Source of the DNA: Candidatus Karelsulcia muelleri PSPU
Lineage (GTDB): Bacteria; Bacteroidota; Bacteroidia; Flavobacteriales; Blattabacteriaceae
Reading direction: 5' to 3'
Assembly (NCBI RefSeq): GCF_000829155.1
Contig: NZ_AP013293.1
Coordinates: forward strand, 180,001-212,000
DNA: 32,000 nucleotides
Positions 5,512-23,240 of this stretch are shown here, in pieces (the first letter of the stretch is position 1; every line of letters begins with the position of its first letter). A program made the position numbers and the translations under genes. The notes under the pieces were generated by a model, which saw only the letters and a program-made list of their open reading frames with translations, had not been told where the DNA came from and searched no databases.

Positions 5512-5533
5512 ATGTTTTTTTTTACGTTTATAG

Positions 5534-5623
5534 CTATTTTTTTTTATGTCTATTTTTTCTACTTTTTTTTTTACGTTTATGTGTAGCTATTTTTTTTTTT
5601 TTTCTTTTTTTTCCGTTTGGCAT
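5534..5623 (-). CDS. 29-aa poly-basic peptide resembling the small ribosome-associated protein conserved in Bacteroidota (bS22/AURKAIP1-COX24-like)
   Basis: Not in the ORF track. My own translation gives MPNGKKRKKKKIATHKRKKKSRKNRHKKK ending in TAG. The pattern MP.GKKRK...ATHKRKKR.RKNRHKKK is what I recall for this family. The gene sits 14 nt downstream of the korA stop. Confidence 0.55.
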   Translation of the reverse strand: MPNGKKRKKKKIATHKRKKKSRKNRHKKK

Positions 5624-7385: not shown

Positions 7386-8396
7386 TTATATATTATTTAT
7401 ATATGTAAAATTTATTATTTTTTTAGCTATTTTTAGAAAAATATAATATATTTTTTTTTCATTTTTTAATACAATTGGACATCCAAAATCAGCAGATTTT
7501 CTAATACTTTCTATTATTGGAATTTCTCCTAAAAATTTAATATTTAAATATTTTGCCATTTTTTTAACTCCTTCTTCTCCAAAAATATAATATTTTTTAT
7601 TAGGTGATTCTTTAGGAGAAAAAAATGACATATTTTCTATAATTCCTATTATAGGAACATTAATCTGTTTAAGATTAAACATAGCTATTGATTTTCTAAC
7701 ATCTATTAAAGATATTATTTGAGGAGTACTTACTAAAATAACGCCCGTTATATTTAATTCTTGTATTAGAGAGAGAGTAATATCTCCAGTACCTGGAGGT
7801 AAATCTACTATTAAAAAATCTAATTTATCCCAAAAAGATTCATTTATAAATTCTTTTATAGCTTTACTTGCCATTGGTCCACGCCAAACTATAGCTTGAT
7901 TTAATTCTGAAAAAAAACCTATAGATAAAATTTTTATGCCATATTTAATAATAGGTAGTATTTTTTTACAATTTTCAATCTCTATTATAGATATTTTTTC
8001 ATTTTCAATATCAAACATTAAAGGTATTGAGGGACCATAAAGATCAGCATCTAATAATCCTACTTTAAATCCAAGATTTGATATTGTTAAAGCTATATTA
8101 GCAGCTATAGTTGATTTTCCTACCCCTCCTTTTCCAGAAGCGATTACAATAATATTTTTTATATTATTAATATATTTTTTTTCTTTTATATTTGAAATAA
8201 TTTTAATTTTAATATTTTTATATATATTTTTATATATACATTTTTTTATTTTTGATTCAATTTTTTTTTTATCATTAATATGATTTAATTCTATTTTAAT
8301 TAGAATTTTATTATTATTATATATAATAATATCAATTTTATTCTTAATTCCAATTTTTTTTATTAATTTTAAAATTTTATATTTAATTTTATTCAT
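7386..8396 (-). CDS. apbC: Fe-S cluster carrier ATPase (Mrp/ApbC/NBP35 family)
   Basis: 336-aa ORF with the deviant Walker A motif ASGKGGVGKST, then LLDADLYGPSIP and DLPPGTGD. The N-terminal ~80 aa are low-complexity. Confidence 0.88.
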   Translation of the reverse strand: MNKIKYKILKLIKKIGIKNKIDIIIYNNNKILIKIELNHINDKKKIESKIKKCIYKNIYKNIKIKIISNIKEKKYINNIKNIIVIASGKGGVGKSTIAANIALTISNLGFKVGLLDADLYGPSIPLMFDIENEKISIIEIENCKKILPIIKYGIKILSIGFFSELNQAIVWRGPMASKAIKEFINESFWDKLDFLIVDLPPGTGDITLSLIQELNITGVILVSTPQIISLIDVRKSIAMFNLKQINVPIIGIIENMSFFSPKESPNKKYYIFGEEGVKKMAKYLNIKFLGEIPIIESIRKSADFGCPIVLKNEKKIYYIFLKIAKKIINFTYINNI

Positions 8397-12827: not shown

Positions 12828-15299
12828 TTAAAATTTATTATCAAATATAAAATTCAATTTCCATCCTGGTTTAGTAGTCTTATCAAGAGTTTTATCCAAT
12901 CTATAAGATAAATCACATCCTAAATATCCAATATAATTTACAAAAAGTCTAAGTCCAGTTCCTATAGAACGTTTTAAATTGAAAAGAGAAAAATTTTTAT
13001 AATTATCAAATATATTTCCAGCTTCAAAAAAATTAGAAATCCAAAATTTAAACCAATTTTTATCCAATATTAAATATCTTAATTCTGATTTATATTTATT
13101 ATAAATCACTCCTCCATTTTTGGGAGTTATAACTCCCAAAAATTTATTAGGTTCAGAATATCCTCTTAAAGGAATAAAATTTTCTTTATTTAAATTATCT
13201 TTTTCAAAATTTGTTCCTCCCATATAAAAATTATTAAGATTATTTGAATTATTATTCAAGATAAATCCAAATTCATATCCTATTTTAGTCATCAAATTAT
13301 TAAAAAATTGATTATACAAAATCGTTTTCAATTGAAATTGAAAATATTCAAAAAATTTTTTTTTAAAATTAGAAATTCTTAATAAAGAAGGTAAGGTAAA
13401 AATTGACTTTAATTTAAAATTTTCACCTGTTTTCATGAAAATTTGTTTTTTATCAATTGTGTTTTTATTAAACAAAAATTTAAATTTTAAATTTTTTGAT
13501 GTTTTAATAACTTTTGTTATCAAATTGTTTTTATTAAAAAAAGATTTCTTATTAGAATCATAATTTATATGAAATTCTAGTTTATTCATTTTTTTTAATT
13601 TTTTTATAAATTTAATTGAATTTTTATTTTTTGTCAAATAATAATTTTTTTCTTCATTTAAATTTGGGTTTGAATTAGATTCAATATTATTTTTCTTTTT
13701 TTCTTTAGAAGAAAATAAATTTAATTTAAATTTACTAAAATTAAATAATTTGGGATCTATAAAAGATAGATTAATTTCTTTTAAATTTTCTCCTAAATTT
13801 ATTAAAAAATTAACTTTTTGATTATCCCCATATGGCCTTTTATTAAATTTTAAAAAATTTAATAAAGAAAAATTCTTTATTTTTAAAAAAAATTGTCCAA
13901 ATAAATCAGGAACTTTATAATTCATTTTAAAGTTTATCTCACTATTTTTTTTTTCAGTAAATAAAAAATTAATATCTACTTGATTTTTTGTTTTATTGGT
14001 TTCATTATTCCAATCCACATTTTCAAATAAATCTAATTTCTTTAAATTTTCTAATGATTTTATAATTTTTTTATGAGACCATAAGTCTCCTGGAGAGAAG
14101 GTAATTTCTTGTAAAAGAATACTATCTTTTACTTTTTTATTTCCTATTAAATTTATTTTATTAAAATAAAATTTTTCATTTTCTAATATAGAAATCTCTA
14201 AATCAAGAACATTATCATCTACCTTTTTTTCAGAAAAACTAAATTTTGGATTGAAATATCCATTTTTTTTATATTCTGAAATTAGACTATTGGGATTAGA
14301 TTCATTTAATACCAAACTTTTTATTTCTAATAAATTAAAAATTTTATTTTGAATTGAATTAAATTTTTGTTTTAAAATGTTATCGTTAAAAAATTTATTT
14401 CCTTTAAAAGAACAATTTCTTAAAAAGTATTGATTACCTTGATCTATTTTTAGATTTAATAAATAATAATTATTATTAATTTTTTTTATTTTTTCTGAAA
14501 GAATTTTTACTTCTTTAAATCCATTTATTTTAAAAAGATTAATTAAATTTTCTTGATCTAATTTAAATTTGTCTTTAACAAAGATTTGTTCTTTAAAAGA
14601 ATTGATCATTATATTTTTTATTTCCTCTTTTGAAAAAAAATTATTTCCTTCAATTATTAAATCTTTTATTTTAAATAAATTTCCTTTTTTTACTGTAATT
14701 TTTAATTTATTATTCTCTTCATAATCCATTTGATATTGGATATTTGTATATCCTTTTTTTTCATAAAATTCATTAATTCTTTTTAAAAAAAAAATAATTA
14801 AATCATCATTTAAATCTTTTTTTAAAAAATCTTTATCAAAAATTAATTTTGATTCTTTTTCAGTAATTCCTATTACTTCAATAGTATTAAAATAATCAAT
14901 TTCATTAGATGATATCTCTAATATAATTTCTTTATTATTAAGATAATGTATATGAATTTTTATATCTTTAAAATTACCATATTTTAATAAATTATTTATA
15001 GTTTTATCAAAATTATATTTTTTTATATCAATTTTATCTCCTTCTTTTAAATCTATTAAAGATAATATTTCATTATTTCCATATATTTTAATTTTTTTTA
15101 TTTTAAAAAAATTTTCTTTATTAAAATTTTCTTTTATCATAATTTTATTCTCACTATGAGCTGGTTGAAAATTTTCTTTATTAAAATTTTCTTTTATCAT
15201 AATTTTATTCTCACTATAAGCTGGTTGAAAATTTAATTCCAAAAATAGCTCTATTATTAGATATCTTAATATAGATAAAAAATTATTCATTTTGTTCAA
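12828..15299 (-). CDS. bamA: Outer membrane protein assembly factor BamA
   Basis: 823-aa ORF with a signal-like N-terminus, POTRA-like repeats (KIKKIKIYGNN..., IKDLIIEGNNFFSKEEI, INLIGNKKVKD) and a C-terminal barrel ending in aromatic F (WKLNFIFDNKF). Confidence 0.85.
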   Translation of the reverse strand: MNKMNNFLSILRYLIIELFLELNFQPAYSENKIMIKENFNKENFQPAHSENKIMIKENFNKENFFKIKKIKIYGNNEILSLIDLKEGDKIDIKKYNFDKTINNLLKYGNFKDIKIHIHYLNNKEIILEISSNEIDYFNTIEVIGITEKESKLIFDKDFLKKDLNDDLIIFFLKRINEFYEKKGYTNIQYQMDYEENNKLKITVKKGNLFKIKDLIIEGNNFFSKEEIKNIMINSFKEQIFVKDKFKLDQENLINLFKINGFKEVKILSEKIKKINNNYYLLNLKIDQGNQYFLRNCSFKGNKFFNDNILKQKFNSIQNKIFNLLEIKSLVLNESNPNSLISEYKKNGYFNPKFSFSEKKVDDNVLDLEISILENEKFYFNKINLIGNKKVKDSILLQEITFSPGDLWSHKKIIKSLENLKKLDLFENVDWNNETNKTKNQVDINFLFTEKKNSEINFKMNYKVPDLFGQFFLKIKNFSLLNFLKFNKRPYGDNQKVNFLINLGENLKEINLSFIDPKLFNFSKFKLNLFSSKEKKKNNIESNSNPNLNEEKNYYLTKNKNSIKFIKKLKKMNKLEFHINYDSNKKSFFNKNNLITKVIKTSKNLKFKFLFNKNTIDKKQIFMKTGENFKLKSIFTLPSLLRISNFKKKFFEYFQFQLKTILYNQFFNNLMTKIGYEFGFILNNNSNNLNNFYMGGTNFEKDNLNKENFIPLRGYSEPNKFLGVITPKNGGVIYNKYKSELRYLILDKNWFKFWISNFFEAGNIFDNYKNFSLFNLKRSIGTGLRLFVNYIGYLGCDLSYRLDKTLDKTTKPGWKLNFIFDNKF
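15111..15230. repeat. Tandem 60-bp duplication (2 copies, 1 mismatch) inside the bamA 5' end
   Basis: 15111-15170 and 15171-15230 are identical except g at 15158 versus a at 15218. They encode NFQPAYSENKIMIKENFNKE and NFQPAHSENKIMIKENFNKE in frame. Confidence 0.95.
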
Positions 15300-17690: not shown

Positions 17691-17764
17691 GGTCTCATAG
17701 CTCAGTTGGTTAGAGCACCTGACTCATAATCAGGTAGTCGCTGGTTCAAATCCAGCTGAGACCA
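17691..17764 (+). tRNA. tRNA with CAU anticodon (elongator Met or lysidine-dependent Ile2; unresolved)
   Basis: Cloverleaf: acceptor ggtctca/tgagacc, anticodon stem cctga/tcagg, loop ctCATaa. The T arm gtcgctggttcaaatccagc resembles Ile tRNAs and the D arm resembles elongator Met. Confidence 0.85.
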
Positions 17765-17789
17765 CAAATAAAAATTTAATTATTAATTA

Positions 17790-18393: not shown

Positions 18394-18787
18394 GGGGCTG
18401 TATTGGAATTGACATCAAGATTAATATATAAGTAAGCATATCGTGTATTGTAATGTAATCACGTAAAATTAATTACAAAAAAAAACCGACAAAACAAATT
18501 ATGCTCTTGCTGCTTAATATTATTTATTAATAAAGAGTAAATTCGCATAAACTGCGAAAGCAAGATATTATTTTATTTTTTTTTTCTTACAAAAGAATAA
18601 AATATAAAATATAGTAAGAATAGGAAAAATTGAGGTTCTAAATTTTTCTAAAATTTATATAGAACTATTTTCTTTGTTAAAATTTCTTGTTATTTTACTT
18701 AGAATTATTTTTTTTTTATAAGATAAATATGTAGAAAGCTTATAATATTACTTGTTTGGACACGGGTTCGAATCCCGTCAGCTCCAC
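18394..18787 (+). ncRNA. ssrA: tmRNA (SsrA)
   Basis: The 5' end ggggctg pairs with cagctcc at the 3' end, which follows a tRNA-like T arm (ggacacgggttcgaatcccgtc). The internal tag frame reads ...KKTDKTNYALAA with TAA at 18515-18517. The exact resume codon was not determined. Confidence 0.9.
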
Positions 18788-18807: not shown

Positions 18808-19149
18808 ATGAAATATGAAACTCTTTTTATTTTAAATCCTGTTCTTTCTGAAGAACAGATGAAATATTGTGTCTATGAATACATAGATTTTTTTTTTAAA
18901 AAAAAAGCAAAATTATTGTTTCAAGAACATTGGGGTTTAAAAAAATTAGCTTATTATATACAAAATAAAATTAATGGATATTATCATGTTTTTTATTATA
19001 AAGTAAATTCTCAATTTATTTCTAAATTAGAATTAAAAATAAGACGCGATGAAAGAATCATTAGATTTTTTTCTGTTAAAATAGATAAAGATGCTTCTTT
19101 ATACATAAAAAGAAATAAAAGTAATTTGGTTCAGGCAGATTTTTTTTAA
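18808..19149 (+). CDS. rpsF: 30S ribosomal protein S6
   Basis: 113-aa ORF starting MKYETLFILNP (S6 hallmark YE..FI..P) with WGLKKLAYYI. It is the first gene of the rpsF-rpsR-rplI cluster. Confidence 0.92.
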   Translation: MKYETLFILNPVLSEEQMKYCVYEYIDFFFKKKAKLLFQEHWGLKKLAYYIQNKINGYYHVFYYKVNSQFISKLELKIRRDERIIRFFSVKIDKDASLYIKRNKSNLVQADFF

Positions 19150-19186
19150 AAAAAAAATTATATATAAATATAATAAAATAATAAAA

Positions 19187-20464
19187 ATGAAAAAAAATAA
19201 TATTGAAACTGAGACTAAAATAGTAAAACCTAAAAGATCTTATAAAAAAAAGATAAAAAACGTTAATGAAACTTCAATTGAAGGTGTAAAACCTAAAAGA
19301 TCTTATAAAAAAAAGATAAAAAACGTTAATGAAACTTCAATTGAAGGTGTAAAACCTAAAAGATCTTATAAAAGAAAACTTAAACCTGAAACGGAAGTAG
19401 CAAAACCTAAAAAAGATTATAAAACTGAAACGGAAGTAGCAAAACCTAAAAGATCTTATAAAAGAAAACTTAAACCTGAAACGGAAGTAGCAAAACCTAA
19501 AAAAGATTATAAACCTGAAACGGAAGTAGCAAAACCTAAAAAAGATTATAAAACTGAAACGGAAGTAGCAAAACCTAAAAGATCTTATAAAAGAAAACTT
19601 AAACCTGAAACGGAAGTAGCGAAATATAAACCGGAAACGGAAGTAGCAAAACCTAAAAGATCTTATAAAAGAAAACTTAAACCTGAAACGGAAGTAGCGA
19701 AATATAAACCGGAAACGGAAGTAGCAAAACCTAAAAGATCTTATAAAAGAAAACTTAAACCTGAAACGGAAGTAGCGAAATATAAACCGGAAACGAAAGT
19801 AGCAAAATATAAACCGGAAACGGAAGTAGCGAAATATAAACCGGAAACGGAAGTAGCAAAACCTAAAAAAGATTATAAACCGGAAACGGAAGTAGCGAAA
19901 TATAAACCGGAAACGAAAGTAGCAAAATATAAACCGGAAACGGAAGTAGCGAAACCTAAAAAATATTCTATAAAAAAAATTAAAACAGCAATTTTTCCAA
20001 TAAAAAATAAAATATTAGAATATTTTAATAATGAAATTAATCAAATTTTAAAAAATAAAAAAATCTATTTTAGATTAGATGAGTATAAATTATTAAATAA
20101 TAATATTATTTTAAATAAAAAAAAAAATAAAAAAATTATTTTTAATTTAAAAAAAAAATTAAAAAAAAAAAAAAAAATAAAATATAAACAAAATCTTGAA
20201 GAAATAGAATTAAGATTTTTAACTCCTTTTGAAGTAAAATTAAAAGAGAAAAAAAAATATTGTTTTTTTAAAAAAGCAAATATAGGTTATGTTGATTTTA
20301 AAAATCCATTATTTTTAATTAAATTTTTAAATGAAAGAGCAGAAATTCTTCCTAGAAGGATTACTGGAACTTCAAAAAAATTTCAAAGAAAAATAAAAAT
20401 AGCAGTAAAAAGATGTAAACAAATTGGTTTATTACCATATATAACTGATATATTAAGAAAATAA
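19187..20464 (+). CDS. rpsR: 30S ribosomal protein S18 with a ~339-aa repeat-rich N-terminal extension
   Basis: The C-terminal 86 aa (nt 20204-20464) are canonical S18: RFLTP...KKYCFFKK..IGYVDFKN..FL.KFLNE...ILPRRITGTS.KFQRKI..AVKR....GLLPY. The 425-aa ORF has a single Met, at position 1, so no internal ATG exists for a conventional-length S18. Confidence 0.85.
   Translation: MKKNNIETETKIVKPKRSYKKKIKNVNETSIEGVKPKRSYKKKIKNVNETSIEGVKPKRSYKRKLKPETEVAKPKKDYKTETEVAKPKRSYKRKLKPETEVAKPKKDYKPETEVAKPKKDYKTETEVAKPKRSYKRKLKPETEVAKYKPETEVAKPKRSYKRKLKPETEVAKYKPETEVAKPKRSYKRKLKPETEVAKYKPETKVAKYKPETEVAKYKPETEVAKPKKDYKPETEVAKYKPETKVAKYKPETEVAKPKKYSIKKIKTAIFPIKNKILEYFNNEINQILKNKKIYFRLDEYKLLNNNIILNKKKNKKIIFNLKKKLKKKKKIKYKQNLEEIELRFLTPFEVKLKEKKKYCFFKKANIGYVDFKNPLFLIKFLNERAEILPRRITGTSKKFQRKIKIAVKRCKQIGLLPYITDILRK
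19223..19963 (+). repeat. In-frame coding tandem repeat array
   Basis: Two 63-bp units (19223-19285 and 19286-19348, encoding VKPKRSYKKKIKNVNETSIEG) are followed by 16 cores gaaacggaagtagc[ag]aaa (ET[E/K]VAK). The cores are joined by three linker types, giving 27-, 39- and 51-bp units. Confidence 0.95.
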
Positions 20465-20488: not shown

Positions 20489-20929
20489 ATGAAAGTAATT
20501 TTATTAAAAAAAAATAACAATTTAGGAAAAAAATTCGAAGAAATAGATGTTAAACCTGGTTATGGTCGTAATTTTTTATTACCTAAACGTTATGTAATAA
20601 TTGCGACTAATTCAGTTAGAAAAAAAATAATTGAATTTAAAAAAAAAATAATTCAAAATAAAATAAAAAACCTAAAAAAAATTTTTTTTTTTTTAAAAAA
20701 AAAAAAAAAAATAGAAATTACTTTTTATCTTAAATTAGGAAAAAATGGAAAATTACTAGGATCAATTACTAAAAAAAATATAAAAAAAATTTTTTTTTTA
20801 AAAAAAAATAAAATAAAAAAAATTTTTTTAGAAAAAAGAAAAATAAATAAAATTGGAATTTTTAACGGTTATTTTAATTTACCATATAAGATAAAATACA
20901 AATTTTTATTTAAAATATTTTATTACTAA
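20489..20929 (+). CDS. rplI: 50S ribosomal protein L9
   Basis: 146-aa ORF with the N-terminal L9 signature MKVILLKK...LGKKFEEIDVKPGYGRNFLLPK and C-domain GKLLGSITKKNI. It contains a T13-A17 homopolymer junction. Confidence 0.92.
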   Translation: MKVILLKKNNNLGKKFEEIDVKPGYGRNFLLPKRYVIIATNSVRKKIIEFKKKIIQNKIKNLKKIFFFLKKKKKIEITFYLKLGKNGKLLGSITKKNIKKIFFLKKNKIKKIFLEKRKINKIGIFNGYFNLPYKIKYKFLFKIFYY

Positions 20930-21008: not shown

Positions 21009-21131
21009 ATTTTTTCTTTCTTTAGAGAGAGGAGAAAAAAATTTTTTTTATAAATGAGAGAATAAACTTATTGAAGTTTTTTTTATTTGAATATAACAAA
21101 AAACTGTCCTCTCTTTAAAGAAGGAAAAAAT
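21009..21131 (+). other. Long imperfect inverted repeat (25-bp stem, 73-nt interior) between convergent rplI and rpoZ; candidate structured RNA or bidirectional terminator
   Basis: 21009-21033 pairs with 21107-21131. The only two non-Watson-Crick positions are G.U wobbles when read on the + strand (21017/21123 and 21025/21115) and would be A.C mismatches on the - strand. Confidence 0.4.
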
Positions 21132-21463
21132 TAATTTTTAAGTTTTTTTTTAATTTTTTTAAAAGAAAGAAGATAATCTAAAAATTCTATTATAGAAATA
21201 GATGTAGGTTTGGTCATAATTTCATATTTTTTAGAAATTTTAATTCTTAAATCATTTAAAATAATTTTTTCAAATTTATCTTTTTCTTGTCCAAAAATAC
21301 CTATTTTACTATATAATGATTCTTTCATAAAATAATTTATTTGATAAGCTCTTTTTGCTAGAATCTGAACTAGATCATATATATTATTTCCTGTATTTTC
21401 AATTTTTTTTAGATCTATACTATAAGTAGATAAATCACTGTTTTTATATTTTAAATCAATCAT
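21131..21463 (-). CDS. rpoZ: DNA-directed RNA polymerase omega subunit (Bacteroidota long form)
   Basis: 110-aa ORF with the core TGNNIYDLVQILAKRAYQIN (omega motif N.Y.L....AKRA.QI). It lies immediately downstream of bamD, as in Flavobacteriia. Confidence 0.72.
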   Translation of the reverse strand: MIDLKYKNSDLSTYSIDLKKIENTGNNIYDLVQILAKRAYQINYFMKESLYSKIGIFGQEKDKFEKIILNDLRIKISKKYEIMTKPTSISIIEFLDYLLSFKKIKKKLKN

Positions 21464-21469
21464 AAATTT

Positions 21470-22357
21470 TTATTTATTTAAATAAAGTTTAGAATAAATA
21501 TCAACAATAATTAAATATGATTCTATTTTTTTAAATAAAAATAGAATTTTATTTGAAATTTTTAATTTGTTTTCAATTTTAAAATTATTATCATTTTTTT
21601 TAAAAAAAGATAAATAATTATCATATAATTTTCTTGTTTCTTGAAAAGAATAATTTTTATTATTTTCTTCTATTTTATATTGTGATATAATCATATATAT
21701 ATAAAATATTTGAGAATCTGGCATATATAGAAAATATTTAATTAAATATTTAAATATTATTAGTGAAGATTTATAGTTTTTTTTATTAAAATAATAATAT
21801 GCTATTGTTAAGTGTTTTTGTTTTATTTTAAAAACAGCCTTATAAAGGTTAGAATCAACTTCTTTTATTCTAATACTATTAGGATATAATTGTTTAAATT
21901 TTAAAAACAAATCTATTACTTTGTAAGTATTTTTTTGATCAAAATTAAAATCATTAGATTTAAAATAATAACACATTCCTAGATAAAAAAGACTTTCTTC
22001 TGAAAGAAAATTAGTATCAAATTTAAAAAAAACAGATTTAAAATCTAAAATAGCTGTATCAAAATTTAATAAAAAATAATTACATAATCCTCTAAAAAAT
22101 ATAATTTTTTTATAAATTGTTTTTTCTTTATTTAACGAATTTTTCTTTTCAGATAAAACCTCTTTTAAAACTTTTAAAGTTTCTTCATATTTTTCTTTAT
22201 GAAAAAAATTAAGTGCTCTTTTTATATTTTTTTTAAATCTTTTATTTGTTATTTGAGTTTTATCAAAAATTTGAATTAAATTAATCATTTTATGATTATG
22301 AATCATAAATGATTTTTCATATTTAAAAAAAAATAATAAATTAATGAATATATTCAT
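21470..22357 (-). CDS. bamD: Outer membrane protein assembly factor BamD (TPR lipoprotein)
   Basis: TPR-like helical repeats (ALNFFHKEKYEETLKVLKEV..., YFLLNFDTAILDFKSV..., LFYLGMCYY) and bamD-rpoZ synteny. The longest ORF starts at 22444, inside dapA. I prefer Met30 at 22357 (signal-like MNIFINLLFFF), which still overlaps the dapA 3' end by 17 nt. Starts at 22306 or 22288 are also possible. Confidence 0.68.
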   Translation of the reverse strand: MNIFINLLFFFKYEKSFMIHNHKMINLIQIFDKTQITNKRFKKNIKRALNFFHKEKYEETLKVLKEVLSEKKNSLNKEKTIYKKIIFFRGLCNYFLLNFDTAILDFKSVFFKFDTNFLSEESLFYLGMCYYFKSNDFNFDQKNTYKVIDLFLKFKQLYPNSIRIKEVDSNLYKAVFKIKQKHLTIAYYYFNKKNYKSSLIIFKYLIKYFLYMPDSQIFYIYMIISQYKIEENNKNYSFQETRKLYDNYLSFFKKNDNNFKIENKLKISNKILFLFKKIESYLIIVDIYSKLYLNK

Positions 22358-23240
22358 TAAATAAATGAACTTTTTTAAGTTCCAAAAAAAGTTTTTTTTC
22401 AAAATTTGGGCTACTTTTAAATAAAGGTAATCTAACATATTCATGACATAATCCTTTTAATTTTAATAAAGTTTTTATTCCAGAAGGATTACCTTCTTTA
22501 AAAATTAAAGATATAATATTAATTATATTATAATATATTTTATAAGCATAATTAATTTTTTTTTTTTTAATTAATAAAATTATTTTAGAAAATTCTTTTG
22601 GAAAGGCTTGTCCTATAACAGATATAATTCCATCTCCTCCTCCCAAAATTATAGGTAATACTAAATTATCATCACCAGATAAAATTATAAATTTTTTTGA
22701 AGTTTTTTTTTTTATAAAATTATATGATTGTATCAAATTTCCTGAAGCTTCTTTTATGCCTATAATATTTTTTTTTTTAATTAATTTATTAATAGTTTCT
22801 ATATTAATATTACAACCAGTTCTATGTGGAACATTATAAATAATAATATTTTTATCAGTATTATCAGATATTTTTTTAAAATGATTATAAATTCCTTTTT
22901 GAGTAGGTTTATTATAATAAGGACAAACAGATAAAATTGCATCAATACGATCTAAATTTATTCTGTTTAAATTATATATTACTTTTTTAGTATTATTACT
23001 ACCTATCCCTAAAACAATAGGTAATCTATCATTATTAACATTTTTTACACAATTTATAATATCAATTTTTTCTTTTAACTTTAATGTACAAGCTTCACCA
23101 GTAGTTCCTAATAATACTAAATATTTAACTCCTCCATCTATTACAGAAGAAACTAAATTTTCAAGAGACGTAAAATCTATTTTTCCTTGTTTATTAAAAG
23201 GAGTTATTAAAGCAATACCAAGACCCAAAAGTTTTTTCAT
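22341..23240 (-). CDS. dapA: 4-hydroxy-tetrahydrodipicolinate synthase
   Basis: 299-aa ORF with LLGTTGEACTL (GTTGE motif) and the catalytic-Lys region IIGIKEASGNL. Confidence 0.92.
   Translation of the reverse strand: MKKLLGLGIALITPFNKQGKIDFTSLENLVSSVIDGGVKYLVLLGTTGEACTLKLKEKIDIINCVKNVNNDRLPIVLGIGSNNTKKVIYNLNRINLDRIDAILSVCPYYNKPTQKGIYNHFKKISDNTDKNIIIYNVPHRTGCNINIETINKLIKKKNIIGIKEASGNLIQSYNFIKKKTSKKFIILSGDDNLVLPIILGGGDGIISVIGQAFPKEFSKIILLIKKKKINYAYKIYYNIINIISLIFKEGNPSGIKTLLKLKGLCHEYVRLPLFKSSPNFEKKLFLELKKVHLFNEYIH

Follow-up and report, generated by a model that had tools for sequence, protein, structure and literature searches.

A repeat-built N-terminal tail on ribosomal protein S18 of spittlebug-type Candidatus Karelsulcia (Sulcia) muelleri

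Why would ribosomal protein S18 (bS18), the product of rpsR, carry several hundred repetitive residues at its N-terminus in Candidatus Karelsulcia (Sulcia) muelleri, a symbiont whose genome is very stable and compact and whose set of genes is almost the same in two sharpshooter strains (PMC2859065)? The question is raised by a stretch of 32,000 nucleotides (nt) from strain PSPU (positions 180,001 to 212,000 of contig NZ_AP013293.1, assembly GCF_000829155.1), hereafter the window, within which all positions are counted. A canonical S18 sequence stands there at the end of a far longer open frame. The reading favoured here is that rpsR of spittlebug-type Sulcia probably encodes a translated, tolerated, slippage-driven and disordered tail of 339 residues on bS18. 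Judged from sequence comparison, this S18 is the extreme case of a Sulcia-wide trait, and neutral explanations fit it well.

A canonical S18 core at the end of one open frame

The list of open reading frames (ORFs) of the window contains a plus-strand frame, 19187..20464, that begins at an ATG and encodes 425 amino acids (aa), with a predicted mass of 50.7 kDa and a predicted isoelectric point (pI) of 10.1. A codon scan located the sole in-frame ATG, GTG, TTG or CTG at 19187 and the sole in-frame stop at the very end. The other frames of the rpsR region are heavily interrupted, with 46 and 79 stops in the two remaining plus frames and 15-33 in the three minus frames. The scan bears out what a preliminary description of this DNA had put forward, namely a 339-aa in-frame N-terminal extension on rpsR without an internal canonical start.

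Recognizable S18 sequence is confined to the C-terminal part of the protein. The Pfam family Ribosomal_S18 (PF01084) matches aa 366-416 of the 425 with 63.6 bits against a cutoff of 21, and the NCBIfam equivalog TIGR00165 matches aa 354-421 with 72.7 bits, above its curated cutoff of 38.75. Among PDB sequences, the bS18 chains of P. gingivalis (9i5v_I, 90 aa; E 1e-28) and F. johnsoniae (7jil_w, 98 aa; E 1e-27) align from their residues 7 and 13, respectively, and in both cases with the query from aa 339/340 onward. These alignments agree with the earlier placement of the core start at 20204. Within the core, 39 columns are invariant against 17 S18 sequences from Sulcia, Blattabacterium and Shikimatogenerans, and all family-invariant residues are kept. 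At 425 aa with a 339-aa tail, the whole product lies outside the size norm of bS18, namely a length of about 75-100 aa and no more than 20 aa of N-terminal tail. The baseline of about 100 aa that had been assumed for flavobacterial S18 is in line with the 87-aa protein of a free-living flavobacterium (L003), in which rpsR starts 6 nt after rpsF. That short gap, together with the lack of any profile match, also led to the rejection of a remnant of ssb or priB, such as lies between rpsF and rpsR in other phyla.

Anatomy and composition of the tail

The tail consists of a short head, a tandem-repeat array and a linker (Table 1). Over 19223-19967, Tandem Repeats Finder detects nested arrays whose periods are 27, 39, 63, 78, 90, 93 and 129 nt, all of them multiples of three; the main arrays match at 92-99%. 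The array opens with 2.5 copies of a 63-nt unit (VKPKRSYKKKIKNVNETSIEG) and continues as heptads with spacers. Parsing into modules yields 16 K[PT]ET[EK]VA heptads, spaced by KPKRSYKRKL, KPKKDY or KY; the other modules are seven KPKRSYK[KR]K[IL], four KPKKDY, seven KY and two KNVNETSIEGV. Chance would not produce anything near such an arrangement. Both the repeat finder and this parse reproduce the order first described, in which KPETEVAK, KPKRSYKRKL and KPKKDY repeats are followed by a linker rich in K, N and I.

The array also differs from its surroundings in base composition. Its guanine-cytosine (GC) content is 0.30-0.35 versus 0.19 for the window, its strand is purine-rich with an adenine-thymine (AT) skew of 0.5-0.6, and ACG accounts for 16 of its 20 Thr codons versus none of 36 in neighbouring genes. 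The linker is non-repetitive, with a GC content of 0.074, 82% of its codons made of A and T only, and a run of 17 A at 20161-20177. At the protein level, the tail as a whole has a net charge of +66 and a fraction of charged residues of 0.47. Lysine makes up about 29% of it, acidic residues supply about a third of the charged positions, and the KY-KPETEVA units are net neutral. YKPETEVAK and DYKPETEVAKPK are predicted tryptic peptides of the tail, trypsin leaving K-P bonds uncut. An AlphaFold2 model built from an 18-sequence alignment has a mean predicted local distance difference test (pLDDT) score of 41.9 for the rpsR product, with coil over the array (pLDDT 35-45) and a weak helix over aa 262-307 in the linker (pLDDT 54-59). 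The low-confidence coil predicted over the array is compatible with disorder.

As the largest tandem array in the window, and one of locally raised GC content, the repeats could in principle act at the level of DNA or RNA, as iterons, an origin or a structured leader, their coding potential being incidental. This explanation has next to no probability. The unit lengths are all whole codons and one frame of six is open, no Rfam family matches the rpsR region at E ≤ 1, strong folding is unlikely because the strand is purine-rich, and the repeat sequence is unconserved between strains.

Turnover of the array among spittlebug-type genomes

Four spittlebug-type genomes were compared: the window, NJPN02000001 (L008, assembly GCA_002855775.2), which an exact search with S6 and L9 of the window retrieved, and two further genomes, L001 and L002. 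The window and L008 are essentially the same strain; the L008 assembly comes from published work that covered symbionts of a cicada and a sharpshooter as well as Philaenus spumarius (PMC6156193). Given its ~285-kb genome type and its tail type, the window is taken to belong to the Sulcia of the spittlebug P. spumarius. The most similar proteins bear the annotation 30S ribosomal protein S18 of Candidatus Karelsulcia (Sulcia) muelleri; they are encoded on chromosomes of 284,838 and 287,254 bp. Exact look-ups of S6, L9 and L27 returned no genomes beyond those already recovered. Sulcia relatives were found neither in a scan of genome contigs, which was swamped by low-complexity patterns, nor in an exact-pattern scan of metagenome contigs.

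S18 measures 425 aa in the window, 434 aa in L008, 249 aa in L001 and 267 aa in L002. The 249-aa form is WP_375323006.1, named 30S ribosomal protein S18 by NCBI, and the 267-aa form bears the same name in UniRef. One frame, the head, the linker and the core are common to all four genomes, the head being identical in L001 and L008 and changed at 3 aa in L002. The arrays of L001 and L002 are wholly unlike that of the window, and their two repeat sets do not overlap. L001 carries eight perfect 21-nt copies of KPEVAKL and L002 4.5 perfect 63-nt copies of VKPKRSSIKSRKPVNEASIEV; since the copies are perfect, both expansions are recent. Between the window and L002, 11 of 63 nt differ in the shared 63-nt unit, as counted from codon listings. 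Divergence at synonymous sites (dS) in the flanking ribosomal genes is 0.02-0.10 among the related strains, and the array evolves much more quickly than the remainder of a genome that is otherwise very static. With unit periods of 21, 27, 39, 63 and 78 nt at 92-100% identity and a variable copy number, the element is an in-frame minisatellite. As evidence of an open frame, its arrays count as a handful of founding events, with five or more types of unit, and not as hundreds of codons.

The window equals L008 over 5.9 kb save one 27-nt unit (KYKPETKVA), which accounts for the 425 versus 434 aa; the difference maps to 19594-19967 of the window versus 3793-4204 of L008. Because the two differ in this way, the array length is uncertain by one unit; either the copy number truly varies or the short-read assemblies disagree. 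Short-read assemblies can mis-size tandem arrays, and a discrepancy of exactly one unit might be taken to suggest that the array is an assembly artefact, or else that the gene is a decaying pseudogene. Such a reading is highly improbable. Two independent assemblies give nearly the same array of 750 nt, two further complete-chromosome assemblies have arrays at the same site, the core retains every family-invariant residue and scores above curated cutoffs, and neither a stop nor a frameshift occurs in any copy of the gene in the four genomes.

The pattern of insertions and deletions (indels) is informative on whether the tail is read as protein. In a three-way alignment of about 6.5 kb, indels inside coding sequences, away from gene ends and outside the array, measure 9, 6, 6, 6, 6 and 6 nt, all multiples of three, while those in intergenic sequence and RNA genes measure 1, 1, 5, 1, 4, 1, 8, 16, 13 and 2 nt, none a multiple of three. 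The linker is kept in L001 and L002 save two 6-nt indels. The rpsF-rpsR spacer contains 5- and 9-nt indels in its upstream part only, and the ATG and the 18 or so nt before it are invariant. Only 4 of 200,000 mononucleotide shuffles of the 231-nt linker were free of stops. Substitutions are few in head, linker and core; the proportion of nonsynonymous differences (pN) is 0.02-0.04 in the linker and 0.01-0.03 in the core. Taken together, the 6-nt linker indels, the stop-free linker and the invariant ATG context argue for coding constraint on the region. The preliminary description had proposed alignment of rpsF-rpsR across related strains as a check; with frame, head and linker kept in all four genomes while the repeats turn over, the outcome favours translation.

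S18 tails in other Sulcia and the search for homologues

The extension is less isolated than was first assumed: all other S18 proteins recovered from Sulcia are likewise extended at the N-terminus. These extensions are 45-82 aa long, lack long tandem arrays and vary in length by in-frame indels. Tails of the cicada/sharpshooter type (45-82 aa) are strongly acidic, with a net charge of -9 to -21, and have no Met near the core. Those of the leafhopper type, from genomes of about 190-218 kb that are taken as deltocephaline, are 48-69 aa long and basic. In Blattabacterium and Shikimatogenerans the S18 tails measure 4-41 aa. Across Sulcia the net charge of the tail thus spans -21 to +66. BLASTP finds no similarity between the spittlebug-type and the cicada-type tail (E = 22), and a derivation of the linker from an acidic cicada-type tail under AT pressure (E to K, D to N) was dropped as unsupported on the same result. 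In a published comparison of Sulcia DMIN and GWSS, S18 figures, with no further remark, as the protein pair of lowest similarity (75%; PMC2859065). From the sequences compared, the S18 tail is a clade-wide hypervariable region in Sulcia that includes a change of charge sign.

Annotation of the rpsR start is inconsistent in leafhopper Sulcia, where forms of 97 aa and of 131-135 aa are given (P0004 / P0006). At the position of the Met in the 97-aa form, L013 (OZ035013, 700-712) has an ATT, and the frame is open to an upstream ATG.

Profile searches with the tail gave no Pfam match at E ≤ 1 and no NCBIfam match at E ≤ 0.01, and PDB sequences match the core only. A phmmer search of the 339-aa tail against 1.84 billion representative proteins recovered S18 of the sister strains and 28 weak matches; those inspected, from Paenibacillus, a fish, Clostridia and metagenomes, are repeat proteins of unrelated kinds. 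In this set, the tail has no homologue beyond the sister strains. One candidate, P0053, is an unnamed 119-aa metagenome protein with a CxxC...CxxC N-terminus and three copies of IVKPKRKYERKIKDIENTE, at 56% identity and E 4e-5 to VKPKRSYKKKIKNVNETSIEG. It was set aside, the match being probably compositional and inflated by repetition. A literature search found no published description of a Sulcia S18 repeat tail.

The tail had also been likened to histone H1 and other nucleic-acid-binding tails. The resemblance to histone H1, to bacterial H1-like or HU-tail proteins and to PEVK-type repeats extends to composition (K, P, E, V, A, T) and predicted disorder and goes no further, as the Sulcia tail has no linker-histone or HU domain, no S/TPKK motifs and no match among the profiles searched. 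That sequence, length and charge sign are all unconserved likewise argues against a conserved biochemical role or a histone-like module.

Start of translation and the favoured explanation

As there is no other canonical start, the upstream frame must stay open for S18 to be made. Translation very probably begins at the ATG at 19187 and would proceed through head, array and linker into the S18 core. The 425-aa product is probably made and assembled into the ribosome.

The comparison of the four genomes shows that the array grows, shrinks and is replaced by replication slippage or unequal duplication of whole-codon units of 21, 27, 39, 63 or 78 nt. Published ribosome structures suggest where the tail would end up. 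In F. johnsoniae, bS18, bS6 and bS21 sequester the 3′ end of 16S RNA with its anti-Shine-Dalgarno (anti-SD) sequence (PMC7797042), and in Bacteroidia the N-terminus of bS18 would face the platform cavity, the exit of messenger RNA (mRNA) and the pocket for the 16S 3′ end. The tail would accordingly be tethered at the 30S platform as a basic polyampholyte cloud near the mRNA exit. Its specific sequence is judged to be weakly constrained, the lack of conservation of the repeats pointing to low constraint rather than to a specific function. The tail would be mainly a tolerated, ratchet-like appendage, kept because S18 has no start codon but the one ahead of the tail. At most, it may add non-specific affinity for A-rich, SD-less mRNA leaders.

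Several points weigh against this explanation. The arrays are weaker independent evidence for read-through translation than their length would imply, because whole-codon slippage keeps the frame automatically. The sample comprises four spittlebug-type genomes, two of them essentially one strain. The array is rich in P, E, T, A and V and in rare G-ending codons, which could reflect selection and not neutrality. Selection could also be reflected in the fact that three lineages of a compact genome have retained tails no shorter than 163 aa; coding density is about 97% in a sharpshooter Sulcia strain (PMC2859065). Finally, the start codon is open to some doubt. Near-cognate codons stand in frame behind A-rich sequence, with ATA at 20177 and 20204 and ATT at 20105-20138; flavobacteria can initiate at ATA, as in infC of F. 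johnsoniae (PMC7797042); and the ATT of L013 at the start of the 97-aa leafhopper annotation speaks of start ambiguity in the family.

These last observations are also what would support initiation of a normal-size S18 at a near-cognate codon (ATA or ATT) shortly before the core, in which case the 1-kb frame ahead of it would be a leader or a separate upstream ORF (uORF) and no part of the ribosome. Adenines upstream of the start are reported to guide start choice in Bacteroidia (PMC13000457). Such a start is nonetheless quite improbable. It would leave unexplained 339 open codons in a genome of about 19% GC, where off-frame stops occur every 5-9 codons, as well as the 6-nt indels of the linker, when intergenic indels break the frame, and the conserved head and ATG context. 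Moreover, a uORF running into the core without a stop would itself give the long protein. The preliminary description had offered a non-ATG start near 20.2 kb as an alternative; the in-frame ATA and ATT codons that it calls for are present, but the conserved frame, head and linker disfavour their use.

Likeness to known systems and the case for an adaptive arm

The closest known analogue is the chloroplast protein bS18c, which likewise carries short, basic, tandem N-terminal repeats of lineage-variable copy number and is encoded in an endosymbiont-derived genome. Plastid rps18 encodes a heptapeptide, SKQPFRK, in 1-7 copies in plants and 6-7 in grasses (Weglohner and Subramanian 1991, as cited in PMC2695775). 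The bS18c repeats form poorly ordered, dynamic density projecting into the cavity of the 30S platform; the extension is proposed to touch mRNA, and the N-terminus of E. coli bS18 contacts mRNA during initiation (bioRxiv 10.64898/2026.07.03.736309). The differences are substantial. The bS18c extension is 19-55 aa long, whereas the Sulcia tail, with about 250 aa of repeats and a 77-aa linker, reaches 339 aa and is about six times longer. The plant motif (S/F)K(Q/K)(P/T)F(R/L/H/S/N)(K/R), with its basic and aromatic residues, does not fit the Sulcia units K[PT]ET[EK]VA, KPKRSYKRKL and KPKKDY, which include acidic residues and composite spacers and lack the plant Phe. There is no sequence homology between the two, and the Sulcia arrays turn over between strains that are 2-10% apart at synonymous sites. 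On present sequence evidence, the Sulcia tail is therefore an analogue and not a homologue of the chloroplast repeats. Mitoribosomal bS18 (6xyw_Bq, 261 aa; 9evs_Q, 237 aa) offers a second parallel, with a C-terminal S18 domain in a protein enlarged two- to threefold; similarity (E 3e-5) is limited to the S18 domains and does not extend to the tails.

The plastid case raises the prospect of a tail that is translated and adaptive. It would form a flexible basic arm on the platform by the mRNA exit and either capture leaders that are A-rich and SD-less or otherwise make up for the loss of translation or nucleoid factors. Such an arm would be convergent with the bS18c repeats, and its copy number would tune function in each lineage. 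This is rather unlikely, although part of the evidence agrees with it. Position and type of feature are those of the plastid repeats, for which mRNA contact has been proposed; the tail has its +66 charge and the protein its pI of 10.1; the composition of the array is far from A/T equilibrium, both in GC content (0.30) and in its ACG codons; and long tails have been kept in three lineages through independent expansions. Other findings speak against it. Sequence, length and charge sign of the tail are unconserved across Sulcia, the KY-KPETEVA units are net neutral, and L001 and L002 have no repeats in common. The two assemblies of what is essentially a single strain are one unit apart, perfect repeat copies fit recent slippage without selection, and no RNA- or DNA-binding domain is recognizable. 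In the broader version of the idea, the tail would be a selected, fast-evolving functional arm for mRNA capture or for tethering of ribosome or nucleoid, offsetting SD-independent initiation or lost factors and convergent with bS18c; this too seems unlikely, perhaps a shade more so. Tolerance of a slippage-driven tail is thus the explanation retained here.

Genomic setting and other features of the window

The gene order rpsF-rpsR-rplI is common to the window, L001, L002, L008, L012, L013 and the free-living L003. A scan for promoters and terminators found promoter-like sites at the frequency expected from shuffles, and no terminator between rpsF and rplI. The coordinates of the operon and of the parts of rpsR are collected in Table 1.

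Table 1. The rpsF-rpsR-rplI region, with positions given within the window
Feature	Position	Strand	Evidence or remark
tmRNA (transfer-messenger RNA) gene, just upstream of rpsF	18394-18787		
rpsF (bS6), 113 aa, upstream operon partner	18808..19149	+	Pfam Ribosomal_S6, E 4e-22; protein identical in NJPN02000001
rpsF-rpsR spacer, 37 nt, A/T-only	19150..19186	+	last ~18 nt before ATG invariant in three strains
Start codon and conserved 13-aa head, MKKNNIETETKIV	19187..19225	+	
Tandem-repeat array, aa 14-262	19226..19972	+	Tandem Repeats Finder, module parse, composition, codon usage
K/N/I-rich linker, aa 263-339	19973..20203	+	stop-free as judged against shuffles; conserved in relatives
Canonical bS18 core, aa 340-425, and stop codon	20204..20464	+	PF01084, TIGR00165, PDB chains
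rplI (bL9), downstream operon partner	20489..20929	+	Pfam Ribosomal_L9_N, E 1.6e-16

The product of rplI has a K-rich, low-complexity middle, and long runs of A and of T lie at 20670-20710. Its C-terminal domain falls barely under the Pfam cutoff (22.7 versus 23.2 bits), and its pN reaches 0.067, the highest among four ribosomal-protein genes compared in three strains.

Smaller tandem duplications occur elsewhere in the window. On the minus strand, the BamA frame (ORF 12828-15299) contains an in-frame duplication at 15108-15234 (60 nt, 2.1 copies, 98% match) that encodes NFQPA[YH]SENKIMIKENFNKE twice, in the N-terminus before the domains. TIGR03303 matches aa 65-820 of this protein with 157 bits, under its cutoff of 297. 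A "putative outer membrane protein" is the second most divergent after S18 between Sulcia DMIN and GWSS (PMC2859065). Two weaker duplications lie at 5515-5613 (54 nt, 1.9 copies, 84% match), adjoining tRNA-Leu, and at 8150-8271 (60 nt, 2.0 copies, 76% match).

Sub-threshold Rfam matches to "Plastid-ycf2 5UTR" and "Plastid-psbl-rps4" at 17691-17765 on the minus strand are antisense to tRNA-Met and tRNA-Ser and are almost certainly tRNA-derived cross-matches. Farther downstream, a 110-aa minus-strand ORF (21131-21463) has a very weak match to RNA polymerase omega (E 3e-4; 21 bits against a cutoff of 76). A BamD-like minus-strand ORF at 21470-22444 encodes 324 aa; the corresponding gene calls are 310 aa long in L001 and 272 aa long in L002. 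The window's ORF overlaps by about 100 nt the minus-strand ORF 22341-23240, which is of the DHDPS family in related loci, and the overlap suggests uncertain starts.

Implications

For annotation, the locus is a reminder that the choice of rpsR start differs between pipelines in Sulcia and that repeat copy numbers from short reads may be unreliable. For the organism, a 1-kb coding minisatellite that turns over between near-identical strains inside an essential ribosomal gene stands out as an exception within a stable genome. If the tail is on the ribosome, a disordered polypeptide of about 40 kDa would sit on every 30S platform, beside the mRNA exit and the anti-SD pocket. Beside chloroplast bS18c, this would provide a second, independent and much more extreme system in which mRNA recruitment may be set against constructive-neutral baggage. 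Should the adaptive reading prove true, the N-terminus of bS18 would be a place where translation systems of endosymbiont origin have innovated repeatedly.

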